In this document: in pieces, positions 1,874 through 8,704 of the stretch
How positions within the stretch are numbered: position 1 is the first letter of the stretch
Layout of the letters: every line of letters begins with the position of its first letter
IMG/VR virus record: IMGVR_UViG_2675903366_000007
DNA from: a virus
Taxonomy: Duplodnaviria; Heunggongvirae; Uroviricota; Caudoviricetes
Direction: 5' to 3' (one strand)
DNA: 16,884 nt
The notes under the pieces: model-generated
Seen by the model: the letters and a program-made list of their open reading frames with translations, nothing else
Told to the model about the DNA's origin: nothing
Databases searched by the model: none
Position numbers and translations under genes: made by a program

Positions 1874-3607
1874 TTAAAGCGAGCGGATCCCGTAGGACTC
1901 AATGTGATCAGACAGCGTGTCTTCTTTCTCGTACAGCATGGCTCTGCCAACCGCCATAATCAGCGCAACTGCACCATCGATTTTGTTTTCCGCCTGCTCC
2001 TTGACGGGCTTCACCACATCATCGTTACCCGGAATGGTTTTGCCGACCACGTTGCCGATACACCAGGTCATGATGGGATTGCCGTCATGATGAAAGCGCC
2101 CCGATTCAATCGCCGCTTCCAGCTCTTTCATCGGATCGGACATGTTGGTGTAGTTCTGAATGATGGTGACGGGGTTCAGGTCTTCATCAGCAAGGTCATG
2201 TGACAGCCCGGTCGCCCCGAAGGGGTCGATAGGTGACTCACTGACCGGGCTGATTTTGTTCGCCGCTTTGGCCTCTTCGAGGATGTAGCGATAATCCACC
2301 TCCGCACCATCGGTAACGGTCAGAACGCCCATTTTCACCCATTTCTGAAAGCGTTCGGCTGTCCGGCGATCTTCATTTTTCTCGACGCTGTACACCGTGT
2401 CATACGGTACCCAGAAACGCGGGGCCACACTGTAGTAATGCGTTTTACCGTCAATCTCGCGGGTATAAAGTCGCGCCATGCTGTTCATATCCAGCTTACG
2501 GGCCAGGTCAAAGGCCAGAATGCACGGCTGCCCCTCGAACTGCTCAAGGGTCAGTGATTTATCCTCGCAGCTCTGCCAGCTCACCAGGTTGAAATACGCC
2601 GAACGCGCCGACACCCAGATATTGAGGTGTTTTGTTTTAAAGACGTTTGCCAGACGGGCGTTATTTTTCGCACGCTGCTGCTGACTTAACAAAAATTCGC
2701 GATAAACCGACACGCCAATATTCGGGTTAGCTTTTTCCAGCACCTGCGGGTCGGTCCAGTCATCGCCTTCGTCAACGGTATAGATGATCCCGAACAGTTC
2801 ATCGTTGGGTACCGACCCGTTGAGCATCTCGATAACTTCCCGTCGCTTGTCGTAGCACGGCCCCTCAATGTTGTACCCGGCAGTAGTAATGGCCCACATC
2901 AGTGGCTGACGTCGCGCCCCCATCCCGGTAAGCATCGTGGTGTAAAGCGCATCGGTGGCGTGCTCGTGATATTCATCCACCACCGCACAGTGGGGTGATG
3001 AACCATCACCGGGGTTACCGATCAGCGGTTCAAACCGCGCGCCATCCTCCGGACGATTCATGTTTGAGGCGTTAACCTCAATCCCGAACGCTTCCGTCAG
3101 CATGGGTGTGCGTTTACACATCAGTCGCGCCGGGCGAAAGACTTCCCACGCCTGTTTCTCTGTCGTGGCACCGGAATACACTTCCGCGCCAAACTCGTTA
3201 TCACAGGCAAAACAATACAGGGCAACACCGGCAGAGATTGCCGATTTGCCGTTCTTACGGGGGATTTCGGTATACACCTCCCGGAAGCGGCGCAGCCGGG
3301 ACCCTTTATTGACCCAGCCAAACGCACAGCAGACCACAAATAGCTGCCACGGCTCCAGCGTGATGGGCATCCTCTTGAATGCCCACTCACCCTTGGTGTG
3401 CGGCAACAGCTGAATAAATTTGGCGGCCCGTTCAGCCAGGTCCTTGTCGAAGCGGTAACGAAACGACTTACTTTTTTCCGCCATCAGGTCATCAAGATGG
3501 CGCTGGCAGGCCTGAATCACAAACTGGCAGGCCACAATCTTTCCGCGCACAACATCACGGGCATACTGATTGGCAGCATTTACGTTGGGGTAAGATTTCC
3601 GGCTCAT
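1874..3607 (-). CDS. terL: Terminase large subunit
   Basis: 577 aa with a Walker-A-like [11 protein letters not shown] overlap with terS. Located upstream of the portal. Overall resemblance to HK97/Terminase_1-type large terminases. Confidence 0.93.
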
Positions 3608-4098
3608 GACTCGATGATTTTCAGAAACGGGTTAGTGGCTTTCTTCTGCCCCGCCAGGCCAATCAGACGCTGGCGGCTGCTGGGGTCGAGTCCGAGCATT
3701 GCCCCCGTGCTGCTCATCTCGGACTCCTGTTCTTTTTTGGCGGTCAGCTCCGGATTTTTGACCCTGCCGCCCATTGCACCGGTGATGGTGTTGCCCTGTA
3801 TGGCAATATTTTTCACGGCACGTCGCCAGAACTCATAGGCCACGCACCACCGCTCAAGCACCGCGAGGTCAGTCACGCACAACAGGCCCTGACCGCAGAG
3901 TTCTTTGGTTGTCAGTTGCCACATGATCGTGGCGAGAGGGAGATTTTCTTCTGCGAACCACTCCGGTGGCTCAACACCTTTGATGGGCGTAAAAACAGGT
4001 TCATCTTTATTCAGGGCTCGCTTGCCGGGGTTTCCGGCCAGCGCCTTGCGCGCCGTTGGCTTGGGGCGACGCCCGGAACGCCCCGCCGTTCCAGCCAT
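3604..4098 (-). CDS. terS: Terminase small subunit, P27-like family
   Basis: The N-terminal basic segment [22 protein letters not shown] is typical of P27-family small terminases. ATG at 4098 with AGGAG 8 nt upstream is preferred over the GTG at 4107 used by the ORF track. The stop overlaps the terL start. Confidence 0.8.
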
Positions 4099-6169: not shown

Positions 6170-6496
6170 TTACTCCTTCGTGCTACCAAATTTGTTACCG
6201 ATTACTCGCATTGCAGCCCCACGAATAGCATCGACACCGATCAGCCCAACACCGCCACCAATGGCTACAGAAAGCGATTTAGGCCATCCGACATACTCAA
6301 GAGCGGATGCAAAGGTCAGCGTCAAAGCGCCACAGAGCAAAATCTCGAGCGTTTTTCGCTTCCAGCCACCACCACCGCCAAAATAGGCAATGCGCAAGCC
6401 AGCCATAACGATCGACATAATCACTGCGCCCAGCGGTGTGTCTCCACGCCACCAGCTCTGGACCAACTCCAGCCAGGTATTTGGGTTATGAGGCAT
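6170..6496 (-). CDS. Holin (three predicted TM segments)
   Basis: 108 aa, directly upstream of the endolysin. It has three hydrophobic segments and a charged C-terminus. It is not the lambda S sequence itself. Confidence 0.7.
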   Translation of the reverse strand: MPHNPNTWLELVQSWWRGDTPLGAVIMSIVMAGLRIAYFGGGGGWKRKTLEILLCGALTLTFASALEYVGWPKSLSVAIGGGVGLIGVDAIRGAAMRVIGNKFGSTKE

Positions 6497-6647
6497 TTGT
6501 AGTTATCTCTCACCTCGCCGATACAGGAGGTGCAAATTGAGGGAGTACCACGAACCGCAAATCAGAAGCGGAAACGTAAAAGAAGCCGAGCCAATGGATA
6601 AGTACTAGATAGACCAAGCCCAACGAATACCAAGGCCCAGAAACGAC

Positions 6648-6670
6648 AAAACCCGCTCAATGGCGGGTTT
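6648..6670 (-). terminator. Intrinsic terminator upstream of the lysis cassette (tR'-like position)
   Basis: The minus strand reads AAACCCGCC-ATTGA-GCGGGTTTTGTCGTTTCT, a GC-rich 8-bp stem followed by a U-rich tract. On the plus strand the tail is weaker (TTTAAG). Confidence 0.6.
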
Positions 6671-6715
6671 AAGCTGTGTGGCGAAGTAACCACTCTTAAC
6701 ACGATACAATAATTT

Positions 6716-6744
6716 TTGCGTACGCGTTAGCGCTTTTGTATATT
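6716..6744 (+). promoter_or_regulatory. Candidate sigma70 promoter for the plus-strand cassette
   Basis: TTGCGT (6716-6721), a 17-nt spacer, then TATATT (6739-6744). It would place the transcription start near 6751, upstream of the ATG at 6778. Confidence 0.35.
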
Positions 6745-6777
6745 CAGCTTAATCCTATGTATTTATGGAAAAATAAG

Positions 6778-7809
6778 ATGAGCAAGCGTGAAATCAAAAC
6801 TAAAAAAATAATCTATAAAGAAGTCACAATGTCAGGTGTGTCAAAGACGCTCCAGTCGATGCTAATGGAGCTGCTCAAAAAACACACTAAAGCAGATTCT
6901 CGCAAGGAAATGGTCAACCCAGGAGAGGAAGACTTATTCCGATTAATTAATAAACATGAAGAGTTCCAGGGAATGCTGTTTTGCCAGCTTGTTGCCTTCG
7001 AACCAGGCCATTCTCAACGCTATATACAGCTTAAAAATGATGCTGAATCTTATGAAATAAGATCCGTAACATCAGATGAACTTTCTAAAATGACTGTTGA
7101 AGAAGCTGAAGAAGCACGCACAGAGAGGGAACAGGTTGTGCGTGAGTTTATAGATTCAATTCTTTATTTCGGTGTATTTGGTAACAGCATCGTAGTAATG
7201 CAATCCAGATCTCTTACAACAAGAGAACTTGAAACACATCTGAAATGGTTACTTGGCTCTTTAAGCAATTACTTAGGCGCAGAAAACATCTTAAAAGTTT
7301 CCGATAAGCCCAAAGAAGAGATCATTGAGGAAGTTCTAAAACGACCTGTAAAATCAGTTTCTATAGGTGCCCCTGTAACTGCCGTTAACGAATTTAGTCA
7401 AGGAAGCAAAAGCCCAGGCTGGGTTCCCGCAGGAACTGCCTCTGAACTCCTTAAAGCTATGTTAGCAGAGAAATGGGAAAGCTTCTTACGTAGTAGCAAG
7501 CTTGAAGATTGTCTTGATGACGCTAATCTTGAAGTAACGCTGAAAATCACATACAAGAGGAAAACTTCTGATTCAGGAGAAAGGATGTTAAGAAATCTTG
7601 TTGACGCTACCAGACACTACCCGGATGATGACGTCGTTGTTGAAATGGTTGGTGGGACGCGTTTAACTGGTAAAGAGATTCGTTTATGGAATACTGTTAA
7701 ACTCACAACTTACAATAGCTTAATTGATGAACATGAACTATATGGCCAAATGCATGATTGGATGGTCGCTCTGATCAACAATGGAGAAATAGAAGAGACC
7801 GATGAATAG
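6778..7809 (+). CDS. Cassette protein A: soluble, acidic, partly coiled-coil protein of unknown function (343 aa from ATG 6778)
   Basis: Long uninterrupted ORF in a low-GC island, antisense to all neighbours. Alternative starts are TTG 6736 (track), ATG 6757 and ATG 6829; 6778 is chosen because it lies downstream of the candidate promoter. I can recognise no catalytic motif. Confidence 0.7.
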   Translation: MSKREIKTKKIIYKEVTMSGVSKTLQSMLMELLKKHTKADSRKEMVNPGEEDLFRLINKHEEFQGMLFCQLVAFEPGHSQRYIQLKNDAESYEIRSVTSDELSKMTVEEAEEARTEREQVVREFIDSILYFGVFGNSIVVMQSRSLTTRELETHLKWLLGSLSNYLGAENILKVSDKPKEEIIEEVLKRPVKSVSIGAPVTAVNEFSQGSKSPGWVPAGTASELLKAMLAEKWESFLRSSKLEDCLDDANLEVTLKITYKRKTSDSGERMLRNLVDATRHYPDDDVVVEMVGGTRLTGKEIRLWNTVKLTTYNSLIDEHELYGQMHDWMVALINNGEIEETDE

Positions 7810-8341
7810 AGAGGCTGCTAAGTGCATATCCTACCAACAACCAAGTAGAGCATTCCACTTGGTTGTTGTAGTATTGCTTATGTCTACAGCCTGGTTTATC
7901 GCCAATAAGTACATCATTTTAACATCCATTCCTTGGGGCGTATTAACTATCCTCATCTTACCAATTGCAAGTAGCGCAACCCTGTTTCATAAGTTATCTG
8001 AAACCCAAAAAAACGTTGCTGAGGATTTATCTCGCAATGAACAAAGAAGGTTAACAAGGCTTATTAAAGAAAAAAGCCGGGCAACATTATTCATGCTTAC
8101 GCTACAAATTTCGATAATAATTTTTGTGGCATTGATTAGCCTTGGCAATGAGTCCTCTTTTGTTCAACAGCACATTCATACTATAAGTAAATTCGTTGTT
8201 TGTGCTTTGGTTTTTTCACTATACTCATTAATCCCTGTTTTACTAGGAGTAAAGGAAGTCATTGATTTTGAAGGGTTAATAAAAACACGAAAAACATTAA
8301 ATAAGCGTAAAAAATCTGCATTATCCAAGCTTGGGAAGTAA
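7802..8341 (+). CDS. Cassette protein B: 179-aa integral membrane protein, four predicted TM helices
   Basis: The start overlaps the gene A stop by 8 nt (ATGAATAG). Hydrophobic segments lie at roughly aa 17-38, 43-62, 94-115 and 128-150. There is a charged central loop and a Lys/Arg-rich tail. Confidence 0.7.
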   Translation: MNREAAKCISYQQPSRAFHLVVVVLLMSTAWFIANKYIILTSIPWGVLTILILPIASSATLFHKLSETQKNVAEDLSRNEQRRLTRLIKEKSRATLFMLTLQISIIIFVALISLGNESSFVQQHIHTISKFVVCALVFSLYSLIPVLLGVKEVIDFEGLIKTRKTLNKRKKSALSKLGK

Positions 8342-8353
8342 TCCAAGCTTGGG
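8323..8353. repeat. Twin palindromes: ATCCAAGCTTGGG repeated 18 bp apart
   Basis: Copies at 8323-8335 and 8341-8353. The core CCAAGCTTGG is self-complementary, so the two copies can also pair as a 10-12-bp hairpin. Its 8-nt loop contains the TAA of gene B. Confidence 0.6.
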
Positions 8354-8362
8354 TTAGCACTC

Positions 8363-8704
8363 TTAAACCATTCTCAGAACACCATCAATAAAACCTAAAG
8401 CAGTTTGCAATTCCTTTCTGATCGTACCATCTGAGCATTTCCGCTTCTTTGCAATTGTACGGAGCGAAACCCCAATAACAAAATGTGCGATTATCAGCTC
8501 ATATTCTTCAGGCCTATATTTACGCAACCGAGCCACACAACTGTCTATCATAATGCCTTCGTCATCATCACACTGAATCCGGGACTTTTTGCCATGAGGT
8601 AAAAGCCCCTTGAAGCCAGCGGCTACCGGTTGCCAGTCCACTCCGCTATTGTCTGAAGCAGCCCAAGCCCCCCAACGATCCATCACTTCATACATATCAC
8701 GCAT
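8363..8704 (-). CDS. Q: Late-gene antiterminator Q (QuuD/DLP12-type Q family)
   Basis: MRDMYEVMDRWGAWAASDN..AAGFKGLLP...SR.QCDDDEG aligns by eye with E. coli QuuD (MRDIQMVLERWGAWAANN..AAGFKGLI...SRPQCCDDDA). ATG at 8704 follows GGAG by 7 nt; the track start at 8719 is a TTG. Confidence 0.85.
   Translation of the reverse strand: MRDMYEVMDRWGAWAASDNSGVDWQPVAAGFKGLLPHGKKSRIQCDDDEGIMIDSCVARLRKYRPEEYELIIAHFVIGVSLRTIAKKRKCSDGTIRKELQTALGFIDGVLRMV

Follow-up and report, generated by a model that had tools for sequence, protein, structure and literature searches.

The stretch of DNA analysed here (IMG/VR virus record IMGVR_UViG_2675903366_000007, 16,884 nucleotides (nt); hereafter the window) carries a lambdoid prophage in which two overlapping plus-strand genes, designated A and B, occupy the interval between the antiterminator gene Q and the holin gene. 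Structural and comparative evidence points to this cassette as, probably, a RexAB-type two-component module for abortive infection or exclusion, in which the soluble protein A would act as infection sensor and the four-transmembrane-helix (4-TM) protein B as membrane effector. The initial annotation of the window had proposed a sensor plus membrane effector of this type, and the proposal is supported by the predicted fold of A, the conserved pairing of the two genes and the occurrence of relatives beside cI-type repressor genes, the function being assigned by analogy.

Rex, which halts other phages by closing down the cell they infect, was the first abortive-infection system to be found, about 70 years ago, and to our knowledge the way in which RexA senses infection and RexB is gated is still unexplained. 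Five Rex-type systems have been described so far (PMC12894663), and the combination of a RexA-fold sensor with a 4-TM effector has experimental precedents in that work and in PMC11077077. The occurrence of such a combination in a prophage is known, and the finding is unlikely to surprise a specialist; what is new is the A/B family itself, which carries no Pfam, NCBIfam or PADLOC annotation and which, by analogy with the known systems, very probably represents a new sequence lineage of RexAB-type modules. Its novel traits are an acidic and longer sensor, a distinct effector family with a long basic tail, and, as its predominant location, an antisense socket beside Q. Native to Escherichia coli, the family offers a comparative handle on the Rex mechanism in the best genetic host, and the features that the Rex-type lineages have in common, a RexA-type fold in the sensor and a charged central loop in the effector, point to mechanistically important parts.

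Predicted fold and architecture of the two proteins

A profile search of 1.84 billion representatives returned 727 relatives of A (representatives at 50% identity) at E <= 1e-3 and 233 at E <= 1e-30, so that A belongs to a large family; a word-indexed search gave 28 clusters. The hosts of the family include prophages of E. coli, Shigella, Providencia, Pseudomonas and Acinetobacter, together with Stx2a-converting phages of O157:H7. A and B correspond to PHROG 3482 and PHROG 16807, respectively, neither of which has an assigned function. Direct scans with hidden Markov models (HMMs) from Pfam, NCBIfam and PADLOC gave no match for either protein, only noise below threshold (PtuA 0.018, SAC3 0.038, DUF3169 0.0044), and for 56 diverse members of the A family Pfam, PADLOC and the PDB sequences gave no match. 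Nothing meaningful came up when the PDB sequences were queried with single sequences or the profiles A1 and A2. PADLOC-DB 2.0.0, Pfam and NCBIfam, as scanned, miss the A/B family.

Some source annotations of related proteins look misleading: a Xenorhabdus homologue of A is named 'universal stress protein', and several RexB homologues are named 'biopolymer transporter ExbB' (P0195, P0200, P0202, P0213 and P0014 for the two names together). The A homologue of Acinetobacter phage phi1_092021 (L107, 4001-5002; about 33% identity) is labelled 'DefenseFinder protein' in its record; it has no PADLOC match and only a sub-threshold one to the Pfam LapA domain (E 7.5e-4), and its partner protein weakly matches a '4TM effector' model of PADLOC (E 0.0014).

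The AlphaFold2 model of A (predicted local distance difference test, pLDDT, 72.6; predicted template-modelling score, pTM, 0.69) was compared with solved structures by Foldseek, and the only significant matches were two RexA chains (E 5e-6 and 5e-5, prob 1.00). A RexA/RdgC-like fold had been the weakest lead of the initial annotation, and it is upheld by this comparison: A is predicted to adopt the RexA/RdgC two-domain fold, of the DNA-clamp type. The RdgC side of this fold brings in the explanation that A modulates recombination or replication in the manner of RdgC, inhibiting RecA or protecting DNA ends to the advantage of the phage itself, with B as a membrane anchor or an unrelated gene. 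This is highly improbable, since RexA scores far higher than RdgC (12.1 and 6.9), no family member matches the RdgC model of Pfam (PF04381), and the strict pairing with B would be left unexplained; RdgC proper was likewise discarded as the identity of A. Two Providencia prophages encode a true RdgC (PF04381) in the early-right region (L006, 2758-3666; L007, 2217-3125) as well as an A-B pair beside cI, and this coexistence indicates that A is not simply an RdgC substitute. SieB is encoded nearby.

The model of B is all-helical (pLDDT 77.5), and the protein has four hydrophobic segments. Its positive charges number 3 at the N-terminus, 9 in the central loop (residues 63-94) and 10 in the tail (151-179), with none in the two short loops, a distribution that, under the positive-inside rule, places both termini in the cytoplasm (N-in/C-in); B is thus predicted to be a small four-helix inner-membrane protein with this topology. 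Four hydrophobic segments, a charged loop and a basic tail had been read from the sequence by the initial annotation, in agreement with the segments and with these counts of lysine and arginine. The partners of distant A homologues are mutually homologous, and among them the most conserved positions of B are P44, P54, E80 and R82, within the central loop or close to it, together with E152, V153, F156 and R163, directly past the final helix. R83 and L84 hardly vary at all, giving E80, R82, R83 and L84 as the conserved loop residues, and the C-terminal helix is basic. When the model was compared with BFVD, ranks 1-4 of the 50 matches listed were unnamed or uncharacterised proteins, two of them with lengths that suggest members of the B family, and rank 5 was a 165-amino-acid (aa) protein of phage Sbash (prob 0.99, TM-score 0.53-0.57, E 0.26, non-significant); Sbash gp31, an effector of Rex-like type that has been validated, is also 165 aa long. 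RexB was absent among the 50 matches listed.

The conserved loop and tail of B could be a docking site instead of a gate, as would be expected if the roles were reversed, with A as a growth-arresting effector, for instance by clamping DNA, and B sequestering it until infection. The gp30/gp31 pair of mycobacteriophage Butters works in this manner (PMC12894663), and the fold of A is of the DNA-clamp type. Nevertheless, such a reversal is quite unlikely for A and B: of the four other Rex-type systems described, three use their membrane protein as the effector (PMC12894663), the architecture of B is as strictly conserved as that of A, and A is acidic overall.

The pairing itself was followed through 104 A-bearing loci from genomes and viral contigs. 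In the 95 intact ones, the next gene encodes a protein of 150-200 aa with 3-5 hydrophobic segments (four in most), usually arranged 2+2; the other nine include loci cut off just past A, loci with a partial or frameshifted A match, and two (L015 and L075) whose downstream protein falls outside this size range. The A-B pairing persists down to 23-30% identity in A, and, two loci aside, the gap between the genes ranges from -43 to +31 nt. A and B are inherited as a pair across a large family, and they are predicted to be translationally coupled.

Genomic contexts and the Q-proximal slot

A Pfam census of the flanking genes revealed two dominant contexts. The cassette is convergent with Q, usually followed by DUF968, in 45 of the 95 loci, the window included, and lies directly downstream of a helix-turn-helix (HTH)/S24 cI-type repressor gene, on the same strand, in 30; the remaining 20 loci have other or truncated contexts. 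The cI-adjacent arrangement is the cI-rexA-rexB position of lambda; it includes relatives with 65-72% identity and is found in Providencia prophages (65% identity in A), in Acinetobacter phages and in Escherichia phage Perceval, where CI is followed by the A homologue, next by a 'transmembrane protein' and then by Kil-Gam-Bet-Exo. The pair occupies prophage hot spots, including the exact cI-rexA-rexB slot.

The position of these 30 loci in the cI transcript, together with the action of lambda RexA on the bistable switch independently of RexB (PMC11077077), could also reflect a role in the life cycle of the prophage, A biasing the lysogeny-lysis switch and B modulating proteolysis or the membrane state on induction. 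This explanation is unlikely, given that the 45 Q-proximal loci, nearly half of the total, are far removed from cI, their slot also housing other cassettes of defence type such as PDC-M53, that A and B are kept as a pair, and that in lambda the role in the switch coexists with exclusion and does not replace it.

The content of the Q-proximal slot varies among related phages. In Shigella phage SfII (L114, KC736978), homology with the window extends from the holin to position 6740 of the window and resumes at 8375, and the slot equivalent to 6741-8374 contains, at 2082-3696 on the minus strand, a soluble 340-aa protein (SfII_50) and a 4-TM protein of 194 aa (SfII_49), which match PADLOC PDC-M53A at E 2e-32 and PDC-M53B at E 3e-54, respectively. 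SfII_49 is homologous to RexBpp, the effector of the Pseudomonas putida RexABpp system (37% identity over 199 aa, E 1e-32), and the PDC-M53B family therefore includes, on this homology, an experimentally supported Rex-type effector. After the conserved non-coding block beside Q (Table 1), phage cdtI carries a plus-strand cassette (L115, 1651-3039) of orf54 (313 aa; DUF6731 at E 1.7e-10, above the Pfam cut-off) and orf53 (147 aa), and mEp460_4F5 (L116, 1637-2563) a single plus-strand gene of 308 aa; these two have no PADLOC match and may be further uncharacterised defence cassettes. The Q-lysis slot of these phages is an exchange site for Rex-type cassettes.

A broader view, possible and put forward tentatively, is that A/B is a separate, widespread lineage, with a RexA/RdgC-fold sensor and a 4-TM effector of independent origin, and that the Q-proximal slot of P27/SfII-type lambdoid phages is a dedicated socket for interchangeable Rex-type or other defence cassettes served by one conserved promoter block, Q-antiterminated late transcription perhaps running antisense through the cassette and turning the defence off on induction. 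In the Stx2a-converting phages the socket lies between Q and stx, so that Q-antiterminated late transcription might cross the cassette antisense; by analogy, A/B would be a defence-type cassette beside stx in O157:H7 phages.

Further observations concern the neighbourhood and integrity of the cassette. In a Franconibacter prophage (L004, 7075-7482), a HicB-type antitoxin gene adjoins the A-B cassette, and HicB appears three times among the upstream neighbours in the census; in the P. putida prophage P1, hicAB2 (PP_3899-3900) is close to the rexABpp region (PMC12894663). The association of toxin-antitoxin and Rex-type modules may be recurrent. ISVsa5 splits gene A in E. coli OkiPb01677 (L118, 728-3097), and IS1 cuts the B homologue of Shigella phage SfIV to 108 aa (L108, 3501-4324); such insertion-sequence disruptions may indicate that an intact cassette lowers fitness.

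Several results weigh against a RexAB-type module. The global TM-score between A and RexA is only 0.29-0.37, a low value, as would be expected when a protein with two hinged domains is modelled with these in another relative position, and the model of A is of moderate confidence, with residues of about 200-290 at pLDDT 47-65. The isoelectric point (pI) of A, 5.3, confirms the acidity noted in the initial annotation, whereas RexA (8.6) and RexApp, the sensor of RexABpp (9.2), are basic, so that non-specific DNA binding by A is not assured. The fold matches of B are all at E > 0.01, and small helical bundles find matches readily. The cassette in the window is not itself beside cI but in the Q-holin slot. 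No match was found between A or B and the RexA and RexB models of Pfam (PF15969 and PF15968) and PADLOC (PDLC02339 and PDLC02340), which recognise lambda's own proteins at E <= 1e-60 (lambda RexA as control at 1e-97 and 9e-110); the RexA models likewise found nothing in the 56 diverse relatives of A, nor did the RexB models in the Perceval and Acinetobacter partners. Finally, profile-profile comparisons of A with RexA, RexApp and Sbash gp30, and of B with RexB, RexBpp and Sbash gp31, were all non-significant: in hhalign, the A family reached a probability of <1% against RexA (as a single sequence and as a 4-sequence profile) and the 70-sequence profile of B 0.8% against the RexB family profile, and the comparisons of the A family with SfII_50 and of the B family with SfII_49 were non-significant as well. 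The same method, however, also fails for the accepted pairs RexA/gp30 and RexB/gp31, which makes these nulls uninformative and at most weak evidence. On the other side stand the A-B pairing, the cI and Q contexts, the Sbash-like model of B, the parallel between the conserved central loop of B and that of gp31, and the homology of the SfII effector in the same slot to the validated RexBpp, all of which count in favour of a RexAB-type module.

By analogy with lambda RexAB, RexABpp and Sbash gp30/gp31, a plus-strand promoter of its own would drive expression of the cassette in the lysogen. A would probably act as a dimer and detect a feature of the incoming phage, which could be phage DNA, an intermediate of replication or recombination, or one of the phage's proteins, and would then engage the cytoplasmic loop or the tail of B. 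B would in turn oligomerise or open, the membrane would depolarise or leak, adenosine triphosphate would drop, growth would stop and the infection would be aborted.

Locus layout and non-coding elements

The prophage in the window is nearly identical to one in E. coli FDAARGOS_144, and its gene order runs from portal, terminase and HNH to lysis, Q, DUF968, KilA-N, RusA and replication, and then to cro/cI. The same 1.75 kb (>=95% identity over >=96% of the length) is present in just 14 of 5426 complete E. coli genomes; near-identical DNA also occurs in the Stx2a-converting phages 1447 and WGPS2, where the cassette lies between Q and the methylase-tRNA-stx2 region. The features of the locus are collected in Table 1.

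Table 1. Genes and candidate non-coding elements of the A/B locus, in positions of the window
Feature	Position	Strand	Basis
Holin gene	6170-6496	-	
Terminator-like hairpin (stem 6670-6649) followed by TTTTGTCGTTT	6639..6670	-	Terminator scan; RNA fold, folding free energy (dG) -13.3 kcal/mol
Conserved non-coding block: GAAGTAACCACTCTTAAC at 6683-6700, TTTGCGTACGCGTTAG at 6715-6730, then a T-run	6683..6738	+ or -, or both	Alignment A7
Putative sigma-70 promoter: -35 TTGCGT (6716-6721), 17-nt spacer, -10 TATATT (6739-6744)	6716..6744	+	Read from sequence
Gene A, encoding a soluble, acidic protein of 343 aa with a predicted RexA/RdgC-like fold; candidate infection sensor and activator	6778..7809	+	ATG start as in RefSeq
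Gene B, 179-aa four-helix membrane protein; proposed membrane effector	7802..8341	+	Open reading frame, ATG start, PHROG 16807
12-bp hairpin from two tandem palindrome copies, (T)CCAAGCTTGG(G)	8323..8354		Sequence; RNA fold
Q gene	8363-8704	-	

The open reading frame (ORF) of A as listed starts at a TTG (6736..7809, plus strand); the ATG at 6778 was chosen here, as in RefSeq. The ORFs of A and B overlap by 8 nt, ATGAATAG, at 7802-7809. A and B are a plus-strand pair in an otherwise unbroken minus-strand run, their neighbours holin, Q and DUF968 all being encoded on the minus strand; 21 nt separate the stop of B from that of Q, and 281 nt the start of A (6778) from that of the holin gene. The guanine-plus-cytosine (GC) content is 0.398 in A, 0.357 in B and 0.382 in the cassette as a whole (6741-8374), compared with 0.501 in the left and 0.529 in the right flank, and the sliding GC profile has the same dip at the cassette. 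Two overlapping frames antisense to their neighbours and close to the stop of Q, a low-GC island, and the letters TTGCGT-17-TATATT at 6716-6744 had all been reported by the initial annotation; the ORF list, the measured GC values and the sequence agree with it on each.

The proximity of the cassette to the holin gene, together with the small size and multi-pass nature of B, would be compatible with a lysis-related B (holin, antiholin or spanin-like) regulated by A. Such an assignment is extremely improbable: the cassette is on the strand opposite to the lysis operon and has a foreign GC content, the 30 cI-adjacent loci are far from the lysis genes, B has no match to a holin model of Pfam, and the prophage already possesses a complete lysis set (holin, endolysin and spanin).

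Homology with the Stx2a phage 1447 (L002) begins at 6648, the left edge of the common DNA, marked by the hairpin at the left of the cassette. The hairpin may be a tR'-like terminator for minus-strand transcription exiting the cassette. To its right, the alignment of the window, SfII, cdtI, mEp460, SfIV, Stx2a_1447 and three other loci (A7) defines a block at about 6683-6738 with an invariant GAAGTAACCACTCTTAAC and the consensus TTTGCG(T/G)AC.CGCG.TAG, kept in phages with differing plus-strand cassettes; TTTGCGTACGCGTTAG contains a palindrome. The segment 6650-6747 matches 1014 of the 5426 E. coli genomes, and the full module is present in 14 of them.

The -35 hexamer and the spacer of the putative promoter are kept across cassette types in the same alignment, and a -10-like hexamer follows TTGCG(T/G) by 17-18 nt in the window-type, SfII and mEp460 cassettes (TATATT in the window type, TAAGAT and TAAACT), being less clear in the cdtI and SfIV alignments. 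A consensus promoter scan made no call at 6716-6744, which is below its threshold with 3/6 matches in the -35 element. The conserved block fits a plus-strand promoter acting as common driver of whichever cassette fills the slot. The same block might instead, or in addition, serve the minus strand, as a Q-dependent late promoter or a site for Q binding; in the Q region the Stx2a phage has about 98.6% DNA identity to the window, and it shares sequence only from 6648 rightwards. A search of the block for a minus-strand sigma-70 late promoter gave no convincing match that would place pR'/qut there.

The palindromic hairpin at the other end has the stop codon of B in its loop, lies between the convergent B and Q genes, and carries a HindIII site in each copy. 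Its dG is -21.2 kcal/mol on the plus strand and -17.7 kcal/mol on the minus strand. As the plus strand has no U-run, a terminator role is uncertain, and the structure might stabilise RNA 3' ends or hold back convergent transcription.

Comparison with lambda Rex and other two-component systems

In relation to lambda RexA/RexB (PDB 8TWQ), A is 64 aa longer than RexA and acidic, B is 35 aa longer than RexB and differs in its longer loop and basic C-terminal helix, and the cassette of the window occupies the Q-lysis slot in antisense orientation to the genes around it. Neither the sequence nor the fold of B shows a detectable relation to RexB.

Kiwa (KwaA, 4-TM, plus KwaB, DUF4868) is likewise a pair of a membrane and a soluble protein. 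The resemblance to it raised by the initial annotation is not supported: A and B have no Pfam or PADLOC match to Kiwa, Kiwa is not among the listed fold matches, and the gene order, soluble then membrane, is the opposite. RdgC (PDB 2OWL), unlike A, has no membrane partner.

The actinophage systems share the architecture. In mycobacteriophage Sbash (gp30/gp31) and in the related gp44/gp43 of Gordonia phage CarolAnn, the soluble partner has 370-372 aa and the other is a 4-TM protein, of 165 aa in Sbash. Like B, Sbash gp31 has an N-in/C-in topology and a conserved central cytoplasmic loop; in gp31 this loop is functionally essential, the loop mutants R70A and D73A losing defence (PMC6426596). These systems differ from A/B in infecting actinobacteria and in the position of the Sbash genes, which do not adjoin the repressor, and they show no sequence-profile similarity to it.

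RexABpp of P. putida (PP_5643/PP_5644) has been validated experimentally (Sci Rep 2026, PMC12894663). Its locus was found by a degenerate C-terminal pattern at 573-2134 of the P1 prophage (L120, IMGVR_UViG_637000222_000004), an identity backed by three primers and six of seven published residue positions; RexApp has a GTG start, 330 aa and 36.6 kDa, and RexBpp has 188 aa. By size RexABpp might have been a member, but it falls outside the A/B family, the A2 HMM having no match in RexApp and the B HMM a non-significant one in RexBpp. Its effector belongs, like SfII_49, to the PADLOC candidate PDC-M53B, whereas B does not, and neither A nor B matches PDC-M53A/B in PADLOC; the main text of PMC12894663 mentions neither PADLOC nor DefenseFinder. 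RexApp and SfII_50 have no similarity by blastp, and the homology of the effectors but not of the sensors suggests shuffling of sensors and effectors between Rex-type cassettes. In summary, there are at least four sequence-distinct lineages with the Rex architecture: lambda RexAB, RexABpp with its PDC-M53B effector, the actinophage systems and the A/B family.

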